Below, in pieces: positions 1-23,398 of a stretch of 64,000 bases of DNA (positions are counted from its first letter, which is position 1; the number at the start of each line of letters is the position of its first letter). The stretch is from a virus (lineage: Duplodnaviria > Caudoviricetes). The notes beneath the pieces were generated by a model. The model was not told where the DNA came from, made no database searches, and worked only from the letters and a program-made list of their open reading frames with translations. Where the stretch lies: the IMG/VR virus record IMGVR_UViG_3300011008_000071, positions 1-64,000 of that record; one strand, given 5' to 3'. The translations under genes and the position numbers were made by a program.

Positions 1-111
1 CACTATCTGTCACCAGTAGCCGCGGTTAGTTAGGCTCTAAGGGTGTTCCCGCAATTATGAGAGAGAAGGCCAATTAGGGTACTCATTCGTGTTGTCCCCC
101 AAATGTAAAAA
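1..111 (-). mobile_element. Group I intron, 5' part (runs off the window start), interrupting the putative sigma-like RNAP subunit gene
   Basis: On the minus strand, exon end AAGGU(U) pairs with GGCCUU (P1 with U-G). It is followed by aattgcgggaacacccttagagcc, which closely resembles the P4 segment of the other introns here (e.g. tgcgggaagtaccttagagcc at ~16040). The ORF tail 'CGNTLRA' is intron read-through. Confidence 0.75.
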
Positions 112-7491: not shown

Positions 7492-7974
7492 TTACTCAGA
7501 TTCTTTCTTTTCAAGGACAGGTGCAAGAGCATCTTTAGCGGCAGCAATTGCTGCAGTGGTTCCATTCTCGACAGCCGTCTTGATTGCCTCCTCTGACATT
7601 GCCGTTACAGTATCTTTGATATCCGCTGCCAATGTAGCCGGCTTATCAATATATTCCTGGAGTTTGTTGTTTGATTTCCACTTCTCCTTTGCCTCAGACA
7701 GGGTGGATTCAATCATCTTTTCAATGTCTTTAGAGGTGTATAGGAATTTGAGCAGAGTCGGAATTCTCTGATACAGCATGTCAGCAACGGCAGCATACTT
7801 CAGTGCTCCCAGACCTGTTCCAAACTCCTGTTCGGCCTTGGTTACCAGAGAGAATACGATCTGCTTCAGTATTGTTGTTTCTCCCTTCTTAATGGAGAAG
7901 ATCAGACCGATCAAGATGACCAGTACGAATAGGATTGTATCCCAATAGTTCACAAAGAAATTTACGACATTCAT
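7492..7974 (-). CDS. Putative holin (LL-H-like)
   Basis: Single N-terminal transmembrane segment followed by the pattern AEQEFG..GALK...IE. Confidence 0.55.
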   Translation of the reverse strand: MNVVNFFVNYWDTILFVLVILIGLIFSIKKGETTILKQIVFSLVTKAEQEFGTGLGALKYAAVADMLYQRIPTLLKFLYTSKDIEKMIESTLSEAKEKWKSNNKLQEYIDKPATLAADIKDTVTAMSEEAIKTAVENGTTAAIAAAKDALAPVLEKKESE

Positions 7975-8043
7975 ATGTCATTCTCCTTTCAAATAGTTAT
8001 CATCAAGTTGAGTGTATATATTATACTTATGGAGGTGATTGAT

Positions 8044-8217
8044 ATGAAATGCAATCGCAGTTACATGAAGCATCCGGAGATAATTACGGAGGCAAACCAG
8101 ACAAATCGTAGGTACCGTAGGGAGATGGCGAAAAAGCAGAAAGCCGAGAAGGGCAAACGCCCTCCTCAGCAGACTGATCACGTTTCAGAAACTCCCGAAG
8201 AGCCCAGCGTTAAGTAG
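8044..8217 (+). CDS. Small basic hypothetical protein
   Basis: GGAGGTG RBS and TATATATTAT motif upstream; 57 aa. Confidence 0.5.
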   Translation: MKCNRSYMKHPEIITEANQTNRRYRREMAKKQKAEKGKRPPQQTDHVSETPEEPSVK

Positions 8218-8405
8218 GGCATCCGGTAGAATTCAGTTACATTCCGTCCAGCAAAGATTTGGTTATACGGGAACCGTATTTCCGAATCGGTCTGGATGGA
8301 GAACTGAGTTCTTTTACCATTCGAATCCACACACGAATCATTGTTGCACACGTAATGAGTGTCAACTAATGTTACATCGGGTCTGAAACAACGGGGACAA
8401 ATCAT
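8178..8405 (-). CDS. Small zinc-finger protein
   Basis: CPRC...CNNDSC. Confidence 0.55.
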   Translation of the reverse strand: MICPRCFRPDVTLVDTHYVCNNDSCVDSNGKRTQFSIQTDSEIRFPYNQIFAGRNVTEFYRMPYLTLGSSGVSET

Positions 8406-8431
8406 ACATATTCATCCCTTTCTTTTTTGCA

Positions 8432-8536
8432 TTAGCCGTTAAGGAGCGCTTCTGCTACGGCCTCTCTCCACCTCTCAGGAACTCCCTCAAGTGTGAGGAG
8501 ACCCTTATTGATGAGATTTACATATACTCTTACCAT
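8432..8536 (-). CDS. CD1375-like small phage protein (34 aa, not in the ORF track)
   Basis: MVRVYVNLINKGLLTLEGVPERWREAVAEALLNG with AGGAG RBS; VP..WR..V pattern. Confidence 0.65.
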   Translation of the reverse strand: MVRVYVNLINKGLLTLEGVPERWREAVAEALLNG

Positions 8537-8554
8537 ATCGGACACTCCTTTCGA

Positions 8555-8803
8555 TTAACCCAGAAGGGCAGCTGCGAGTTCAGCGATTGCGAGCTCGGTT
8601 TCGGTTTCCACCTGGTAAAGCTTGTACTCGTCCTTGGTGAGGATAGCCTCATCATACTCGAAGTATTTGGTTTCCTTGCCCTCAGAGTCTGTCTCAGTCT
8701 GCTCTGTGATATTCTTTCTGAGGTATACCGATGTCTTCGAAGACGTCTCATCGACTGCTACCGGTGCTTCATTGGATCTGGACTTGTTCCATGTAATTGT
8801 CAT
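8555..8803 (-). CDS. Small tail-fibre-associated protein
   Basis: 82 aa ending ELAIAELAAALLG; follows the RT and precedes the CD1375-like gene. Confidence 0.55.
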   Translation of the reverse strand: MTITWNKSRSNEAPVAVDETSSKTSVYLRKNITEQTETDSEGKETKYFEYDEAILTKDEYKLYQVETETELAIAELAAALLG

Positions 8804-8809
8804 GACACA

Positions 8810-9919
8810 TTACATCCTTTCTGAAAATTTTGTTTTAATCAACGCCAGTTGTTTGTTCTGACGATTATCGTATTGTGAAATACGGTCCTTACATTTCTTG
8901 AATGACATGCACGGCGCAATGTATTTCTTATACATTTGGTAAGTATCTGACCAATCAATGTATCCCAGATATGCCATCAACTGATGGGCATCATGAATGG
9001 TGCATTTCTTCTTTTGATTTATTTTAGCTGCTTTATGCTTGAAACGCTTCAGCAGGGATTTTCGTAATTGTGTACGGTCTCGGTAGAACTTGAACCCACA
9101 GAAGTCCAGCGCTCTTCCCTTGTGTTTACCCGTTTCTTTGTCTATGTAATCGACCCGGAATATTTGCCAATCTCCCTTGATTCGTAATTTCATATCTCTT
9201 AGGAATTCTTCTATTTCTCGCAGTGCATGATGTAGGATTTCTTTATCTTTTGCAAACAGGACCATGTCATCCATGTATCGGACATAGTACTTGATATGAA
9301 GCTCTTCTTTGATGTAATGGTCCAGGGGTTGAAGTAACCAGTTAGCCAGCCAGTGAGATGTATAGAATCCCAATGGCAACCCGTCTCCTTCCACATCCAG
9401 TATCTTGCTTATTACCTTGAGAAACTTCTTGTCGCGGATATACCATTCCAATCGTTCCATTAAGATATCCTTCTGAACACTATTGAAGAACTTCTTGATG
9501 TCCAACTTCAGACAGTACTTAGTATGCTTCTTATCTTTCATCCATTTCTTCACTTGTTTACTGCAAACATGCAATCCTCTCCCCGGGATAGATGAGTAGG
9601 TATGTTCATACATTCCCTTGGTAAACATGGGTTTCATTGCCTGGACAGCCATGTGATGAACGATATGTTCATGTATCTCGGGAACGATAATTTCCCGTTT
9701 CTTGTTTTTGCATCCATCTGTAATCACAGTAGGAGTATGATATGGATATGGGCGAAAATTAACTGCATATTCGCGAATCTCCTCGACAAACTCGTCGGGG
9801 TGACTCGCAATCCATTTAACGTCTCTTCGTTTAGTTTTACCTTTAATACCATTCGAAATTGCTTCCTGAATATTCTCATCAGAAATAAAAATCTCATATA
9901 AATGATTATATGACTTCAT
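8810..9919 (-). CDS. DGR reverse transcriptase
   Basis: LKLDIKKFF, GLPLGFYTSHWLAN, YVRYMDD and DFCGF motifs; 369 aa with no endonuclease domain; adjacent TR/VR pair. Confidence 0.95.
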   Translation of the reverse strand: MKSYNHLYEIFISDENIQEAISNGIKGKTKRRDVKWIASHPDEFVEEIREYAVNFRPYPYHTPTVITDGCKNKKREIIVPEIHEHIVHHMAVQAMKPMFTKGMYEHTYSSIPGRGLHVCSKQVKKWMKDKKHTKYCLKLDIKKFFNSVQKDILMERLEWYIRDKKFLKVISKILDVEGDGLPLGFYTSHWLANWLLQPLDHYIKEELHIKYYVRYMDDMVLFAKDKEILHHALREIEEFLRDMKLRIKGDWQIFRVDYIDKETGKHKGRALDFCGFKFYRDRTQLRKSLLKRFKHKAAKINQKKKCTIHDAHQLMAYLGYIDWSDTYQMYKKYIAPCMSFKKCKDRISQYDNRQNKQLALIKTKFSERM

Positions 9920-10153: not shown

Positions 10154-10244
10154 GGCGCCAATATTCCAGTTGGAATTAGACACAGTATTATTCAGGTTGC
10201 AATTGAATGCACCATCTTTAGCACCGTTATTCGAGTTACCACCG
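10154..10244 (-). repeat. DGR template repeat (TR)
   Basis: Non-coding and rich in AAY codons (..GGN SNNGAKDGAFNCNLNNTVSNSNWNIGA). Both VRs differ from it almost only at TR adenines. Confidence 0.95.
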
Positions 10245-10541: not shown

Positions 10542-10583
10542 AACCGGAATTCCGGCCCCGGTTAAGGAGATGGAATTCCGGTT
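10542..10583 (-). other. Inverted repeat downstream of VR1 (candidate DGR homing hairpin or terminator)
   Basis: aaccggaattcc...ggaattccggtt, ~30 nt past the target stop codon. Confidence 0.5.
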
Positions 10584-10609: not shown

Positions 10610-12220
10610 TTAGGCGGTCGGTTTCAGGGAGAGGCGGGCGCCACAAGTCCAGTAGGAACGAGACACAGTATCATTCAGGGAGCAACCGAATGCACCATCC
10701 TTAGCACCGTGATCACTCTTGATATTCCATCCGTAGTCAGCATAATGAGTTGATGCGGAACCACTGGAGAGATTACCCATGAACAGACCATACTGATTAG
10801 CGATCATTTCAGAGATATATCCCTCAAAGTAGTTATTAGCACCATTATTATCAGAACCACCCGTAGGAGTACCAATTTCAATATAACCGTTACCGGTTGT
10901 ATTGTAATCAGATACAGTGGTTCCATCCTGAGTACCTCTGGTGAGCTTAGCCTTCAACAGACCATCTACAGAAACAAGTCCCTGAGTTCTATCCCAGAGG
11001 TTGCCCCAGAAGTTCTCTATGCCGAATACCTTAACGCCAACGTTGTTAGCGGAAGTACCGTAGAAGAGACCTCTTGTGTTCATTGTACCTGTATCGAGTA
11101 CACCAGTATTCTCAGCATTCACATATCCGTTCATGTTGCCATTACCGAATACAGCCTGTGTATTGGTGGACTTACCGATGAGGACGAGGAGCATCTGGAG
11201 AAGCTCACGGTCAGCAAGAACCGAGATATCCCAGATATTAACGCCGGAAGCGTTGTTCGCACGAGCTTCTGTGATCTGGGTCGTACCAGTCTGGTTTGCG
11301 GTAGGAGTCTTGCCGGAGATGGATCTCAACTTGGAGTTGTCATCAACCCAACCGTTGTATGCTGCAACGTATGTGTACGGGATGATCTCGCCGTTTGCAT
11401 CTGTATGAGAATATGCATGGTAGGATGCGTCTACCTGGTAAGGAGCAATGTATACTCTGATCTTACCGGAAACGGATGTATCAAACTTCAGCCATACTGT
11501 CGGGATACCAACCATAACATCTCCGTCGAAGGTGTCATCCGCGATGTCGGAAGCTGTGCCATCCGCCTTCTTGGTATAGTCATCGGGATCAAGGTCATAA
11601 GCAACCGTGCCATCAGAATTCATCATTCTGGGCTTGAGGTCCTTGATGAACCAAGCGTCTGCCCAGTCACCATAATTCGGAACGCCCGTTGTGAGGTTCA
11701 TTGTGAACGGCTGGAACTGGGAGTTGATGCCAAGGTAACGAACCTTGGAAGCAGGGTTGGACTCTGCGGTATCAATCTCGAAACCATAAACCTGGCTAAG
11801 AGAGTCAACTGCAACCGGATTGCCGGAAGCATCAAAGGAAACTACCTGGCCTGCAGTTCCTGTGATCTTATCCTGCTTTGCTGCAAGACCCGATGTAAGT
11901 GTAGCTGCATTTGCAGCTGTGTAACCGAGAGCATCGTTGATGTTCGCCGATGTCATAATATTGGTCTTGGCATCTGCGATGATCGTAGCTTCGGACTTGT
12001 TGTCAACATTTCCGAGACCTACCTGCGCCTTGGTTACATTGTGCGGGTTACTTGTGTTTGCCGCATGTGTAGCAAAGGTGGGAGCAGAAAGAGTCAGTGT
12101 GGTGCCGTTCTGTGTAACGGTGATGCCGTTCTCGCCTGTCATGGTGAGGGTGGTAACGCCGTTAATGGTAGCATCTGTACCCTTAACTTTTCCCAGGTTA
12201 ATCTGTTTTGCCATAAGCAA
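10610..12220 (-). CDS. DGR target: tail fibre/receptor-binding protein with C-terminal C-type-lectin (FGE-like) domain
   Basis: Tail-fibre repeat NPHNVTKAQVGLGNVDN, GIENFWGNLW, and a C-terminal VR ending GARLSLKP. Confidence 0.9.
   Translation of the reverse strand: MLMAKQINLGKVKGTDATINGVTTLTMTGENGITVTQNGTTLTLSAPTFATHAANTSNPHNVTKAQVGLGNVDNKSEATIIADAKTNIMTSANINDALGYTAANAATLTSGLAAKQDKITGTAGQVVSFDASGNPVAVDSLSQVYGFEIDTAESNPASKVRYLGINSQFQPFTMNLTTGVPNYGDWADAWFIKDLKPRMMNSDGTVAYDLDPDDYTKKADGTASDIADDTFDGDVMVGIPTVWLKFDTSVSGKIRVYIAPYQVDASYHAYSHTDANGEIIPYTYVAAYNGWVDDNSKLRSISGKTPTANQTGTTQITEARANNASGVNIWDISVLADRELLQMLLVLIGKSTNTQAVFGNGNMNGYVNAENTGVLDTGTMNTRGLFYGTSANNVGVKVFGIENFWGNLWDRTQGLVSVDGLLKAKLTRGTQDGTTVSDYNTTGNGYIEIGTPTGGSDNNGANNYFEGYISEMIANQYGLFMGNLSSGSASTHYADYGWNIKSDHGAKDGAFGCSLNDTVSRSYWTCGARLSLKPTA
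10637..10714 (-). repeat. DGR variable repeat VR1
   Basis: 78 nt aligning to TR 10154-10231 with 14 mismatches, 13 of them at TR adenines. Confidence 0.92.
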
Positions 12221-12631: not shown

Positions 12632-12733
12632 TGAATCGATCCTCCTGTCTTGGAAAATTAATAGGGTGTAGCCTTAATTCCCATATCCATGTTACACCTT
12701 CTTAATTGTTTGACAATCAAAGGAGATGATTAT

Positions 12734-15700
12734 ATGGAAACAATTGATTTCGAGCAGCTGGATTACGGGCTGTACCAATTGGATTCCGACGGAATCATGT
12801 TGGAAAACATCCGATATGCAACTTCTGATTTCAACAGGCTGTATACAAGAAAAGTTCGACTGCCTGAGGGGAATGGTAATCTCGTTTTCCTGTTATCAAA
12901 TACGTTTTCATCTACGCTAAGTATGATTGAAAATGGGGTGTTTGTAATGCCCCCAACATACCGCAAAATATACTACCCAGTGTTGATGACAGGATCATTC
13001 CTTGGAAGAAGGTATCGGAAGTATATATCCGGTGGAACGAAAACAGAACATGATCAGCTTGTGCGTTCCAAGACGAAGCTCCGTGTATACCCAGGTAGGG
13101 TTCTGAGAAAAAGTAAAGATAACATCATCGTGAATCTGGGAGATGTGTATGAGGCCGTAAAGCCAATACTTACGACGAAACCTCTGAAGCAGGTGTATAA
13201 CAACTTCTGGAAAGAATTCGCTGCAATATGTAATCGGATGACATATGACGTCGATGAAAAATCCCATAAGGTACTGATTATCGATTGCGACACATTCGGA
13301 TGGACGGGGAACAGTCTGGAAGATGCCAAATCTAATCCGTTATACCTTCTATATATAGCATACCTCAGGAATAGAGATTTGAGCAAGTTGAATGTCGATA
13401 TGGACATGATGATCTGCTCAAAGAATCTCTTCATGAAATTCAACCCGGCCAAGCTGGATATGAAGATGTGGGGTATATTCAGAAGAGGTCTGTTCCGTAT
13501 CATGAAATCCGATCTGGATGCCTTCACCGATTCCCTGTCTGAAGAGGAGAAGAAGGAACTTCAGGATACTGCCCAGGACAAGGTTCTGTCTTCAATCGTT
13601 GCCAATACCGTTGATGCATACACCAAGAACTCTTCTTCAGCTGTCAAATCCGTAATACAGGATAAGGTCGAGGAGAAGTTAAGAAAGACTGCGGCAGAAA
13701 AGGTGAAGATTGATAAAGAAATCAAGAAAGCTGTCCCCCAGAAGAAATTGGATTCGTTTGACTCCTTCATGAATGGTCGGGTTACGACAGCAAATCCTGT
13801 CAAGAACCCATTCACTCCTGCACAGCAGAAGTTATTCCAGCGTGTTGCTGGAGACTATGAGAAGTTGGCATCAGACACGGGAATTGAAGTTGATGATGAT
13901 TACGATGATGACGAGTACACATATTCAGACGAAGAAGAGGAGATTCTGCAGGATGATGCTCAGGATATTCTGATGTCAGATGATGAGGTCAAAGATGCTC
14001 TACTTACTGAACTTCAGAACCGTGTGGAACCCAAACCGGATTCGAAATCACCCCAGGCGAATTCCGCTCGAGATGCAAAACTTCGGGAGGCTCAAAAGAA
14101 GGTCGTTGTTAAGAATTCGACGATTGAGCAGTTGCTGGAGCAGGAGACGGATAATGTTCCCATCCAAGAAGAGGATAAGTCGAAGGTAATGCATACGGCA
14201 AATAAGAATATGCAACATATTAAATTTGCCAACTTCGAGAAGACGTATCTCGACTCTCTGTATTACAAGGACATCATTGCCTGCTTCGATATGCTCAAGG
14301 ATCAGGAATCCCCGTTCTTCATTACTGATGTCAAGATCACCGATACCTCAACGGCTCTTGATTTAAAGGAAACCTGGACTGTATCCTTGAAAGATGAGTT
14401 CGGCAAGAAGCACACGATGAAGGTTGACATTCCTCGCTTCAAGGACAACAAGTTCATGCTCATCAATGGTACCAAGTATATCATGTTGAAGCAGAATTTC
14501 TACAAGCCTCTCGTCAAGGATACTCCTGACACCGTAATTCTTACTACGAACTTCAATAAGGTTACCATCACCAGAAAGGCTACCAGATCCCTGAATATGG
14601 TCGAACGGCTGTTCTCTCTCATCAAGAAGGCGAATAACCCAAAGATGTTCCTAACAGGTGACAGCAGCCAGAGTAACCGGAAGTACATTTCATCTTTGGA
14701 ATATGATGAGATATCCAAGCATCTGTTCAAGATTGAAATGAAGTCATGTGAATTATGCTTCTCCAGAAAATGGATCGAAGAGAATTGGGATGATAAGATC
14801 CCCAGTGATATCAAGAAGGATGAGTTCTATATTGGAACTGCCAACGGTTCCCCAGTAATAATCAACGAAGATACGGGTCTTGACCGCTCCGGCAGGACCA
14901 TCGTTCAGATCATCGAAGAAAATCTCCCAGATGATTTGAAGACTCAGTTCAATTCCATCAAAGGACCAAATCAGTCAATGTATGTTGAATGTAAGATGGC
15001 AAGTGAGTTCATTCCTGTAATCACGGCATTGATTGTATGGAATGGCCTGAAGAAGACTTTGGATCTCATGGGAACCGAGTGGAGCTTCTCTATCAAACGT
15101 CCTCCGGCTGGATCTAAATATATCCGCTTCAGTGATGGATACCTCATATACAAACCCGAGATATTCTCCGAGTTGTTGCTCAATGGATTACAGAAGATGC
15201 ATCCAGAGCAGTATACATTTGAAGACTTTGAGTCTGAAGCAGGCTATGAAGAATTCATGTATGCGCAGTGGGGTTCCTTCAACGGAATCACCGAGATCAA
15301 GTCCTTCAACAACTTCCTGGTGGATCCTATCACCAAGTCGGTATGCCGGGATATTAATCTCCCCGATACTCCTTCTGGACTTCTAATCCATGCTGTAAAG
15401 ATGCTATGTGATAATGCATTCAACTCCAAAGCATCGGATAAGTCTTACCGTGTGAGATCTCTGGAAATCATTCCAGCGATTCTGTATTCGGCAATTGCAA
15501 TTCAGTATAAGAATTACATTAAGTCCGGAAGAAGAATTCCATTCACATTGAATCAAAGATGTGTAATGAGTATGCTTAAGTCTGGACCTGTTGGCACCGA
15601 AGCTTACTCCACCCTGAACCCTGTTGTGGAAGTAAACAAGTCATCCACGATCAGTGCTAAGGGATATAGGGGTACTAACAAAGATAGATCCTATGATGAA

Positions 15701-18520
15701 GCTAAACGATCCTATGATCCTTCCTCTGTAGGTAAGCTAGCAATATCAACATCAGCCGATGCAGGGGTTGGCGTCACGAAACAATTGGCAACCGAACCTG
15801 ATATACAAAATGCTAGAGGATTCAGAAGTCCTTTACCTGATGAAGATCAAAAGGAAGAAAGAGCTGCTGCTCTTGCTGAATTGAAAGATGTAAATGTATT
15901 CTCTCCTACGGAGATGATTACACCTGGAACAGCAAAGCGAGACGATCCCATCAGAACCGCGATAGACCTTTAACTAAAGGTAAACATTTAGATAATCCCC
16001 CAAATATGTTAACCTGTTGTCGCGGTAAAACCACATATATGCGGGAAGTACCTTAGAGCCAGGGACACGGCGCAGGTATGGTGACATGCCTGGCAGCAGT
16101 ACGGATAACGCCGTACGGATCGTAACAACGCCCTGGATTATTATAAAATTATATGGAGGGATGTCTCATGAATGAAGAGAAGATTGCCGTGATATGGAAA
16201 CCTGTTATATTAGATGGAGAGCCAACTCAATACGAAGTCAGCGAATATGGAAATGTTAGAAATGTTAACACGGGCAATATATTAACTCCAGTTCCGCTCA
16301 AAAATAGTGGAAGACTTCGTGTACTAATATACAGAAATGGAGTTCGAAAGGATATGAAAATTCATAGACTCGTATACGAAGCATTTTATGGACCAATTCC
16401 AAAAGATATGACAGTTGACCATATTGATGAAAATATTCTTAATAACCATTACACCAATCTTAGATTATTAACCCCTTCTGAAAACATTAAATCTTTCAGA
16501 AACAACCATCCCGATTTTTTACAAACATATTCGGATGAGACGCTCGACAGCTTCTATAAAATGCTTCAAAAAGGAGTATATCATTTAGATGCTGCTATAG
16601 AATGCGGAATCAATAAATATCAGTCTTATAGTTACCTCGTTGGCAGGAGAAGACATGATTTATGGTTAAAATATCAGCCATTTGATCCTGGGGCATATAG
16701 ACGAATCAGATTTACAGAATCTGATAAAGAAGCTGCAATAGGAATGATTATGCATGGGATGAGAAGTCAAGAGATACTCAAAAAATTACATATCAAATAT
16801 GACCCATTGAGTATTGATGTTATCTATAAACTTCGTAAACAACTCGGGATTAAGGATCCGAGATATTTCGATGCTGATCTCATTTTTGATGTCGATACAT
16901 TAATCAGAGATGGAAAGACCAATGCAGAAATATATGAAATTCTTCATATTGAATTTGATGATCGGGTATCATGGATGATGGCTCGCAGAAGGAAATGGCT
17001 AGGTATCCCAAACAATAATCTCAAAAAATCAACCCCAGAAGAAATGAAAATAATCAGAGAAGGAATAGCTTCAGGGTTGAGTAATAATGAAATTCTTGAT
17101 AAGATTGGTAAAGAACGGAATCAATATTACATTGATTTATTCGGTAAAGAAAGGCAAAAATACAAGAAGAAACAAAGTTCTACCTCAGAGACTATCGAAA
17201 GCATAGTATAGGAGAAAGACCTATATGAAGAAGTGAGTAGAGTAGCGAAAGCAAAACGTGTGGCATTGTGTAATTGGTAACAGATTACACAGTGAAGATA
17301 TAGTCCGTCTGTACATGAAAGTGTATAGGTTGCTCAAATGAGCTGGTAAACAATCCGGCCATATAGTACCAGTAGCAGACGCCGTTCCATCACTGGTATC
17401 AAATGGCTTTGATGAAGCAATTCAATTCCAACTCTCTGATGACTTCGTTGTCAATGCCGAAGAAGATGGAAAGGTAATTGATGTCAACGAGGAGCTGGGA
17501 TTCATTGTCGTTGAATATGCATCTGGAAAGCATAAGGCAATATCAACCAAGCCGGAAGTTGTCAAGAACTCCGGAGCAGGTTTCTATCTGTCGAATGCTC
17601 TGGTGCCAACACATACCAAGGTTGGAGAGAAGTTCGTCAAGGATGAACCTCTTGCATATCATCCGAAGTACTTTAAGTATTCCAAGCTGAATGGTCTTCG
17701 ATTCTCCATAGGCCCATTATGCAAGATGGCATTCATGTCTTCATATAACACATATGAAGATGCCGGCATCTGCACTGAATCTCTATCATCCAGAATGAAG
17801 ACATCGATTGTATATATGGAATCTGGCAGATTTAAGAAGAATAATAATATTCTTTCGATGGTCAAGGTCGGAGACCATGTATCGATTGGAGATGCTCTGA
17901 TCAAGTTCGATGTTTCTTCGGAGGATAATGAACTTGCAAAGTTCTTCAACAAGCTTAATGAAGAAGACAGGGCAATGTTGGAAGATGAGGTCAAGGATGA
18001 AATCAAGACCATGCATGCCGGAAGAATAATCGATATCAAAGTATACACGATTCTTCCCCCAGAAGCATTGTCTCCTTCTCTGGGCAAGATCGTGAGGGAG
18101 TTCTGGAATACAGCAAATGCTAAGAAGGATTTCCTCAACCAGTATGATTCTGAGAATAATACTCTGAAAGCTGGGTATTTGCTTACGGATGAAACGGAGC
18201 CTGTCAAGGAAGAATATAACACCATCAAAGGCCAAAAGGGTGTAGATGTTCTGATTGAGATTTACATTGAGCATGATGATGTTATGGGCGTAGGAGATAA
18301 GATTGCACTGTACGGGCCTAACAAGCAGATCATATCCCAGGTAATTCCTAAGGGGTATGAACCGTATTCGGAATTCCGTCCTGATGAAGAAATCTCTGTG
18401 CTGTGTTCTCCTGGAACGGTTGCCAGACGAATGGTTTCTTCTACACTGGTAATCTCGGCTGCAATGAAACTCTGTGTTGAGCTCAAAAGAAAAATCAACG
18501 ATACAATCAAATACAAATAA
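12734..18520 (+). CDS. Multisubunit RNA polymerase beta subunit, large virion-RNAP type (phiKZ gp178-like); exons 12734-15963 and 17341-18520, ~1469 aa
   Basis: INGTKY, KGYRG, R.YD.S..G, GVTKQL, spliced junction DDPIRTAI|AGKQSGH, TYEDA and GDKI...NKQIIS. Splicing restores the frame. AGGAG RBS before the ATG at 12734. Confidence 0.9.
15964..17340 (+). mobile_element. Group I intron in the RNAP beta gene, with HNH endonuclease
   Basis: P1 ACCGCGAU/GUCGCGGU, P7 elements cagagactat and gaagatatagtc, terminal G at 17340. Confidence 0.9.
16168..17211 (+). CDS. Intron-encoded NUMOD4/HNH homing endonuclease
   Basis: YEVSEYGNVRN, IHRLVYEAF, VDHIDENILNN; its 3' end overlaps the intron core. Confidence 0.9.
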   Translation: MNEEKIAVIWKPVILDGEPTQYEVSEYGNVRNVNTGNILTPVPLKNSGRLRVLIYRNGVRKDMKIHRLVYEAFYGPIPKDMTVDHIDENILNNHYTNLRLLTPSENIKSFRNNHPDFLQTYSDETLDSFYKMLQKGVYHLDAAIECGINKYQSYSYLVGRRRHDLWLKYQPFDPGAYRRIRFTESDKEAAIGMIMHGMRSQEILKKLHIKYDPLSIDVIYKLRKQLGIKDPRYFDADLIFDVDTLIRDGKTNAEIYEILHIEFDDRVSWMMARRRKWLGIPNNNLKKSTPEEMKIIREGIASGLSNNEILDKIGKERNQYYIDLFGKERQKYKKKQSSTSETIESIV

Positions 18521-22513: not shown

Positions 22514-23080
22514 ATGAAATTAAATACAGCAATCAAAGAATTCATGGAGAAGTATGATTCGGAAGCAATGGCTTCTATCGATAATATCGCAACTAAGGTT
22601 GGGCCGCTTGTTGCTACTAAGCCACTGGTTGTATTCAATCTTAAAGAATCCTGTGATCAGTTCACCGAATATCTTCGTGGCTACGCTCAGTATATGAAGG
22701 CTAACAAAGATAATCCAAAGCGGACATCCCGCGAAGGAATACATGCTTCCGTAAACAAATTCATGGAAGAGACTTTGTTCAAAGAGTCCAAGATTCAGTA
22801 CAAGGATATTCCGGCATTTGTGAAGTCGTATCTGGAGTCGGTCAAGGCCATGGAAGACGAAGTTACACATCTCAAAGAAGATATGGAACTCAACGATGTC
22901 TCGCTGGAGGAAGTTGGAGATCTTTCGGAATATGCGGATATATTCATTGGAAAGCTCAATGAATCTCTATCACCTATCATGGAAAATATTCTATGGGCAT
23001 CTGGGTATGCCGGTTCTCATGGTTATAAAACACCTCTGCAAACACAACTCGCTTCTGCTCATAAAGTTTCCTTTCTTTAA
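22514..23080 (+). CDS. Hypothetical protein
   Basis: 188-aa ORF with AGGAG RBS. Confidence 0.7.
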   Translation: MKLNTAIKEFMEKYDSEAMASIDNIATKVGPLVATKPLVVFNLKESCDQFTEYLRGYAQYMKANKDNPKRTSREGIHASVNKFMEETLFKESKIQYKDIPAFVKSYLESVKAMEDEVTHLKEDMELNDVSLEEVGDLSEYADIFIGKLNESLSPIMENILWASGYAGSHGYKTPLQTQLASAHKVSFL

Positions 23081-23200
23081 GCGTTATACACACGGGGTGT
23101 TGACCCCGTGTGTATAATGTCCTCCAAAGTCAAATATACCCCTATAAAAATCGGCGGGCGGGATACGGTGTAGTGATGGGCAATGGGACGGGGCGCTATT

Positions 23201-23312
23201 CGGTGGTAACTCGGGTCACGGTGCTCGGGATGGTGCATTCGTTTGCGGCCTGAGTTATGCTGTGTCTGGTTCCGACTGGGATATTGGCGCCCGCCTCTCC
23301 CTGAAACCGACC
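23201..23312 (+). repeat. Remote second DGR variable repeat (VR2) plus shared 3' segment, with no upstream gene
   Basis: 23201-23291 matches the TR over 91 nt with 17 mismatches, all at TR adenines. 23292-23312 is identical to the 21 nt that follow VR1. Confidence 0.92.
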
Positions 23313-23337
23313 TCTCATAAGTTACAGCGAGACCAGA

Positions 23338-23365
23338 ACCAACCCCGGATATGTCCGGGGTTGGT
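23338..23365. terminator. Hairpin downstream of VR2 (terminator and/or DGR homing hairpin)
   Basis: accaaccccgga-tatg-tccggggttggt. Confidence 0.65.
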
Positions 23366-23398
23366 GTTTAGTTAATCATCAAGCTTAGTAGACAACAC

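Follow-up and report, generated by a model that had tools for sequence, protein, structure and literature searches.

The remote targets described for DGRs, such as those of Treponema denticola, Legionella and the cyanobacterial DGRs, are in each case the 3' end of a gene (Wu et al., 2018, PMC5758913), and the same survey expected no remote targets in phage genomes. In the literature searched, remote target genes are described and gene-less repeat families are not (PMC5758913). The system reported here resembles these cases in that a single reverse transcriptase (RT) and template repeat (TR) appear to act in trans on dispersed repeats that differ from the TR only at adenines; it departs from them in that nine of its ten copies are gene-less and in that the copies, the farthest more than 100 kb away from the RT, are found within a phage genome. 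It also recalls pilE/pilS of Neisseria and vlsE/vls of Borrelia, where, as here, one expressed locus is accompanied by many promoterless, 5'-truncated copies of its variable part and the expressed copy has at least one exact match among the silent ones. Unlike in those systems, a retroelement appears to hypermutate the silent copies described below, which have no known initiator element. Alternative C-terminal fibre segments inverted relative to the expressed gene are likewise a property of the Mu G and P1 C segments and of plasmid shufflons, but our repeats are homologies of 75-120 nt rather than short crossover sites, no recombinase of the Gin, Cin or Rci type is found in 287 kb, and one orientation was observed.

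The DNA analysed here, the window, is a stretch of 64,000 nucleotides at the start of contig G000 (118,713 bp, estimated 44% complete), which belongs to a giant (jumbo) rumen phage. The core of its DGR lies on the minus strand. The reverse transcriptase gene (8810..9919; Pfam RVT_1, 1.2e-21; phrog_1423, 5e-99) encodes a YMDD motif and a DGR-like LGFYTSHWLAN, which we take to be the SH variant of the DGR SQ motif, and it is the sole RVT_1 match in G000 and in the second contig introduced below, G001. The TR (10154..10244), delimited by repeat search and base counts, comprises 91 nt with 27 adenines and lies 235 nt upstream of the RT. Looking for an Avd-type accessory gene beside the RT (window 7492-8803), we found only small ORFs with no NCBIfam match at E values up to 0.1. 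The target gene, also on the minus strand, encodes a tail fibre of 534 aa (P0001, 10610..12214; phrog_5302 tail protein, 1e-79) and contains the expressed variable repeat VR1 (10637..10713), of which 77 nt match the TR in this allele. VR1 is followed by an IMH-like 21-nt 3' element (10616..10636), absent from the TR, and by a hairpin farther downstream (10542..10583, z -3.6).

A variable repeat outside any gene, VR2, occupies 23201..23291 on the plus strand and has homology to the full 91 nt of the TR. The repeat search returned it as an inverted match to 10154-10244 (91 nt, 81%), and positions 23216-23312 as a match to VR1 at 10616-10712 (97 nt, 86%). The sequence-only reading from which this work started had proposed that VR2 departs from the TR exclusively at adenines, and a base-by-base count bears this out: all 17 differences fall at TR adenines (13 A>G, 2 A>C and 2 A>T) and none elsewhere, a pattern whose probability by chance is (27/91)^17 = 1.1e-9. 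That reading also described the substitution pattern as largely unlike that of VR1, and indeed 14 of the 24 comparable adenine sites differ between the two, while every other copy differs from VR2 at 13-20 sites. Immediately after the repeat comes a 21-nt 3' element (23292..23312, plus strand) identical to that of VR1 at 10616-10636 and, as had been noticed, absent from the TR; 25 nt past it begins a GC-rich, terminator-like hairpin (23338..23365, plus strand; 12-bp stem, z -4.2 versus shuffles). On the other side, a strong hairpin (23081..23121, plus strand; 18-bp stem, z -8.0) directly follows the ORF at 22514-23080, and the cassette thus sits between two hairpins, as first described.

We found no gene at this cassette, in agreement with the initial claim. 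An in-frame TAA at 23145-23147, 18 codons ahead of 23201, and a TAA at 23367-23369 bound the open frame of VR2, whose translation offers no ATG, GTG or TTG ahead of VR2. No protein homologous to this frame (40-128 aa) was present among 5.8 billion predicted proteins, and a sigma-70 scan gave no promoter upstream of VR2. A small protein made from the cassette was considered and rejected, both for the lack of such a homologue and because the start codon is inconsistent among the copies; a TATAAA-type motif at the start of the leader was likewise rejected as a promoter, since it is not a general promoter motif of the genome. The gene end with a CLec- or Ig-fold that accompanies a DGR target is found at VR1 and is lacking at VR2, where there are only about 45 domain residues and no start. 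Of the other features of a DGR target, VR2 has the adenine-only divergence, an RT and a TR in the same genome, a VR-specific 3' element and the downstream hairpin. VR2 is a real, silent, gene-less variable repeat of the DGR, has the cis features of a DGR target and shares its adenine pattern with no other copy; the original description of it as a silent cassette that was diversified independently holds.

VR2 is not alone. A search of the whole 118,713-bp contig, with the TR and flank motifs as queries, revealed three further gene-less copies: VR3 (118623-118713, plus strand) at the very end of the contig, VR4 (71630-71703, minus strand), which starts 18 nt past the stop codon of a helicase gene, and VR5 (92250-92337, plus strand), which starts just past a virion-protein gene. 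Five more copies, R_a to R_e, reside on G001 (IMGVR_UViG_3300011005_000065; 168,392 bp, 62% complete), a contig found by a motif scan of IMG/VR, so that the two contigs together hold nine orphans and one tail gene. In all ten copies, the differences from the TR lie almost exclusively at TR adenines, with adenine/non-adenine counts of 12/0 for R_a, 13/0 for R_b, 16/0 for R_c and 13/1 for VR3. VR4 and VR5 have two non-adenine differences from the TR.

G001 is probably the other half of the same phage genome, which would then measure about 287 kb. This rests on the absence of an RT from G001, on the near absence of genes in common with G000, on the adenine-only divergence of its full-length copies from the TR of G000 and on the similar composition of the two contigs (GC 41.3% for G000 and 41.4% for G001; tetranucleotide correlation 0.98-0.99, equal to that between the halves of one contig). 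If the two contigs do belong together, the genome contains a single RT, a single TR and ten copies of the repeat, and VR1 alone among these lies in a gene. The cassette loci are reproducible: L036, a sister-sample contig, carries one of those of G001 with 99.99% identity and breaks off precisely at the boundary of the repeat. When IMG/VR was scanned for the leader, for the 3' element and for a degenerate pattern of the repeat, only G001 and L036 came up; a metagenome scan with the 3' element gave no match, a protein-based one gave distant relatives only, and the phage collection had no near DNA match for 8.5-26 kb. Another dispersed repeat common to both contigs was seen at window positions 1-107, which are 98% identical to G001 75484-75588.

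The orphans share a common build. Six of the copies (VR2, VR3, VR5, R_a, R_b and R_c) have homology to the full 91 nt of the TR, and ahead of the repeat these six have eight bases in common with the intact tail gene (codons A-L-F), which give way to a non-coding leader; every orphan keeps the codons of the ALFGG strand that the expressed gene needs. The leader of VR2 (23140..23200, plus strand) is homologous to those of the five other orphans. Leaders are either short or long, the long form having a G-rich insert of about 35-40 nt and being 98% identical in three copies. They contain indels and a decayed partial copy of the repeat, which would be tolerable only in non-coding DNA. The leader of VR3 has an in-frame ATG, that of VR5 has one that is out of frame and that of VR2 has none. 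In VR2, the insert looks like a partial copy of the TR, positions from about 12 to 33, that has decayed and been mutated at adenines (3 of 500 shuffles reach the score in a local alignment that tolerates changes at adenine sites); the same interpretation was rejected for the VR3 leader, for which 148 of 500 shuffles reach it. Five cassette loci searched against Rfam gave no match for leader or cassette, and the leaders fold no better than their shuffles.

At their 5' ends, VR4, R_d, R_e and the VR1 of the deletion allele described below are truncated, at TR positions 14, 26, 36 and 14, respectively. The 21-nt 3' element is perfectly kept in seven of the ten copies, VR5 being without it and that of R_c being degenerate. 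The hairpin downstream is different in every copy, so these structures are probably local terminators. The sites themselves are short, mostly convergent intergenic gaps. Taken together, the features of the orphans indicate non-coding DNA.

The tail gene of the window is itself unusual. P0001 lacks 11 codons just 5' of VR1 (a 33-nt deletion with its junction at 10713/10714), and its counterpart P0121, from another JGI contig of the same lineage (71.5 kb), equals P0001 plus the residues GTTFALFGGSS; the repeat of P0121 is that of VR3, 5' codons included. All homologues read NIKSG-TTFAL(F/V)GG-S ahead of the repeat, and in a model of the intact form the deleted residues make a confident core beta-strand with two near-invariant positions. 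This model (pLDDT 85) best matches the CLec-fold DGR variable protein TaqVP (5vf4, E 2e-11), followed more weakly by Mtd of the Bordetella phage and by FGE. As in other CLec-fold variable proteins, the VR1 repeat encodes the C-terminal ligand-binding strands; VR2, unlike such proteins, spans only the last ~45 residues, which cannot fold alone. The tail gene of the window is either a defective minor allele or a path taken by the assembler.

We then compared the adenine patterns of the copies with one another. Seven independent patterns are found among the ten copies, and over the 27 adenine sites most pairs differ at 9-20. Three pairs have identical patterns, namely VR1 and VR3 (0 of 24 sites differ), VR4 and VR5 (0 of 24) and R_b and R_e (0 of 17); the identical stretches amount to 77, 74 and 91 nt, respectively, and are always inverted repeats. 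For VR1 and VR3, the identity extends to 99 nt in the intact allele, as judged at the protein level, and VR3 agrees with the expressed repeat at 24/24 adenine sites and in one shared non-adenine change. Independent mutagenic homing cannot yield such identity, which points to copying at the level of DNA, and since the retained adenines are also identical, the copying would have proceeded by DNA duplication or gene conversion and not by the mutagenic RT. Judging by these patterns, sequence copying between the copies, the expressed one included, has evidently occurred. In both orphan pairs (VR4/VR5 and R_b/R_e), one copy has the leader with a foreign 3' flank and its partner has a foreign 5' flank with the proper 3' element, a linkage of flanks that is uncertain in each identical pair because these are short-read assemblies through repeats. 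The foreign flanks show neither a target-site duplication nor complementarity. For the remaining pair, the 3' flank of VR3 lies beyond the contig end and the 5' flank of VR1 is the tail gene itself.

The sequence-only reading went further and suggested that VR1 and VR2 exchange sequence, by a crossover that would invert the segment between them or by gene conversion. The geometry is as it described, with VR1 on the minus strand and VR2 on the plus strand, pointing away from each other. The more general part of the idea, that sequence moves between copies, is supported by the match of VR3 to the expressed repeat and by the two further identical inverted pairs of orphans; for an inversion or conversion between VR1 and VR2 themselves we found no evidence. 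The junction test was made on assembled Logan contigs. In a source-like run (X1) and in an independent goat-gut run (X2), a contig joins 10714 to 23193 on opposite strands, and this sole joint of the tail body to the VR2 flank, which at first sight looks like an inversion junction, was rejected as such: it is the intact allele, as in P0121, in which the DNA of the 11 extra codons finds its best match in the paralogous VR2. In X2, 90 letters precede the tail-body match and 75 of them align on VR2, which would fit about 11 nt for G-T-T-F, the 75 and about 4 more. A joint in run X20 that goes back from 23175 to 10636 has a depth of 2.6 and a side of 31. The variants listed at 23242, 23248 and 23256 are all at adenine sites, and contigs of paralogous copies align there, so they are not usable as polymorphism of VR2. 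No serine or tyrosine recombinase (PF00239, PF00589) was matched in G000 or G001.

The account that we hold to be somewhat better than an even bet is that the orphans are non-coding pseudo-targets that are still written in trans by the DGR, recombine with one another and are tolerated as by-products. An ancestral truncated copy, comprising the final ~45 codons of the tail-fibre gene (the ALFGG strand and all that follows it) and none of the gene body, would have gained a short non-coding leader and multiplied to at least nine intergenic sites in the ~287-kb genome. The leader that the orphans have in common suggests their descent from one truncated, multiplied copy, and a relic of a deleted second target gene, which the sequence-only reading had considered the simpler alternative, is a poor fit to a VR2 that is one of at least nine orphans built in this way. 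VR2 keeps the whole cis set for retrohoming (the 91-nt TR homology, the 21-nt element that marks a VR and the hairpin just beyond), so the RT and TR at 8.8-10.2 kb would rewrite it in trans with adenine-mutagenised cDNA, as for the tail gene. VR2 itself yields no protein. The general recombination of the phage may occasionally copy or exchange cassettes, the expressed repeat included, since the copies share 75-120 nt of near-identical sequence. Several observations sit uneasily with pseudo-targets: nine copies are many for chance duplication, one orphan exactly equals the expressed repeat as in a working cassette system, and the 3' element and the long leader are conserved though they are not refreshed from the TR, so that they either spread very recently or are under selection. 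In a rival account, the orphans are a library of silent cassettes kept by selection, in the manner of pilS or vls; the DGR would diversify them off-line and homologous recombination would move variants into and out of the tail gene, so that receptor-binding variants could be switched or recovered without new mutagenesis. The agreement of VR3 with the expressed repeat (24/24 adenine sites, the shared non-adenine change and the extra 5' codons) speaks for such a library, as do the ALFGG strand codons kept in every orphan, the conserved 3' element and leader, the inversion of the tail block in a relative (G005) and the inverted placement of the leader-bearing orphans with respect to the tail gene, by which recombination would not delete DNA. 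We nevertheless regard it as rather unlikely, because copying could have run in either direction and duplication would account for the identity just as readily, no expressed gene takes part in two of the three identical pairs, and VR4, VR5, R_c, R_d and R_e have decay-like truncations at the 5' or 3' side or a degenerate 3' element; moreover, no dedicated recombinase or initiator was found, nor any junction evidence for VR2.

Should the cassettes be a small mobile element that propagates by replicative copying, whether RT-dependent or not, with the truncated inverted duplicates as its scars and the writing by the DGR incidental, then the nine copies at unrelated sites, the flanks split within identical pairs (the expected outcome of replicative inversion) and the varied 5' truncation points (TR 14, 14, 26 and 36), as in target-primed reverse transcription, would find a ready explanation. 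This is improbable in our view: the flanks show no target-site duplications or other relationships, no transposase or recombinase was found, the part duplicated in R_b and R_e includes sequence absent from the TR, and the pairs are identical at their retained adenines, which means that the last copying step was not made by the adenine-mutagenic RT. An error of assembly, in which VR2 or its flanks were mis-joined through k-mers of the hypervariable repeats and no orphan exists, comes to mind because related contigs often break at variable repeats, G000 itself ending in one, and because of the odd 33-nt deletion in the tail gene of the window. It is very improbable, given that the sequence on either side of VR2 is unique and lies within a long contig, and that the adenine pattern of VR2 is unlike that of any other copy and so cannot have been borrowed. 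In the source-like run, independent Logan contigs end at the edge of the cassette (23148, a repeat boundary), contigs of other runs cover both VR2 flanks, and the sister-sample contig reproduces the G001 cassette locus at 99.99% with the same repeat boundary.

In the usual view of DGRs, one template is written into gene ends; here, one template would go to ten sites, nine of which encode nothing. If the silent copies feed the expressed gene, hypermutation by a retroelement and cassette recombination, both classic strategies of diversification, would be joined in one phage, and the system would be a testable case of stored host-range variants. We give only modest credence to a two-tier host-range system of this kind, in which the DGR writes both a silent library and the tail gene and recombination moves whole variants between them; if true, the phage would have a memory of receptor-binding alleles or pre-made alternatives for them. 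If the copies do not feed the gene, they would be natural neutral reporters of raw DGR activity, recording its mutation spectrum and tract length without selection on a protein, and automated DGR pipelines, in which each TR match is taken for a target gene, will report too many targets.

In complete relatives whose target belongs to the same family, the TR is accompanied by a single VR. In the nearest jumbo relative, G005 (IMGVR_UViG_3300006213_000045), the tail protein is 49% identical and the order at 31.1-39.2 kb is RT, TR, RNA polymerase (reversed), tail gene and VR, to be compared with window 8.8-18.5 kb. The block of tail and RNA-polymerase-beta genes is thus inverted with respect to G000, with one endpoint in the gap between TR and VR, and the VR of G005 is 6.7 kb from its TR and in inverted orientation. 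This inversion is consistent with a rearrangement at variable repeats; at the other endpoint, however, no copy of the repeat is present in G000.

In the window, the gene for the RNA polymerase beta-like subunit is split into two ORFs (12689-15973 and 17603-18520) with a free-standing HNH endonuclease gene (16153-17211) between them, and this insert is absent from G005 and from the contig of a goat-gut relative, which skips 16139-17174. A stretch of 85 nt (16055-16139) reaches precisely to the left edge of this insert and recurs with 100% identity at two places in G001, of which one is the end of that contig; it is probably a repeat tied to homing-endonuclease genes. At the 3' end of the HNH gene, a short element (17190-17250) is common to many other genomes, and in three unrelated runs the contig depth over these positions rises four- to twenty-fold, with many loose contig ends on both sides.
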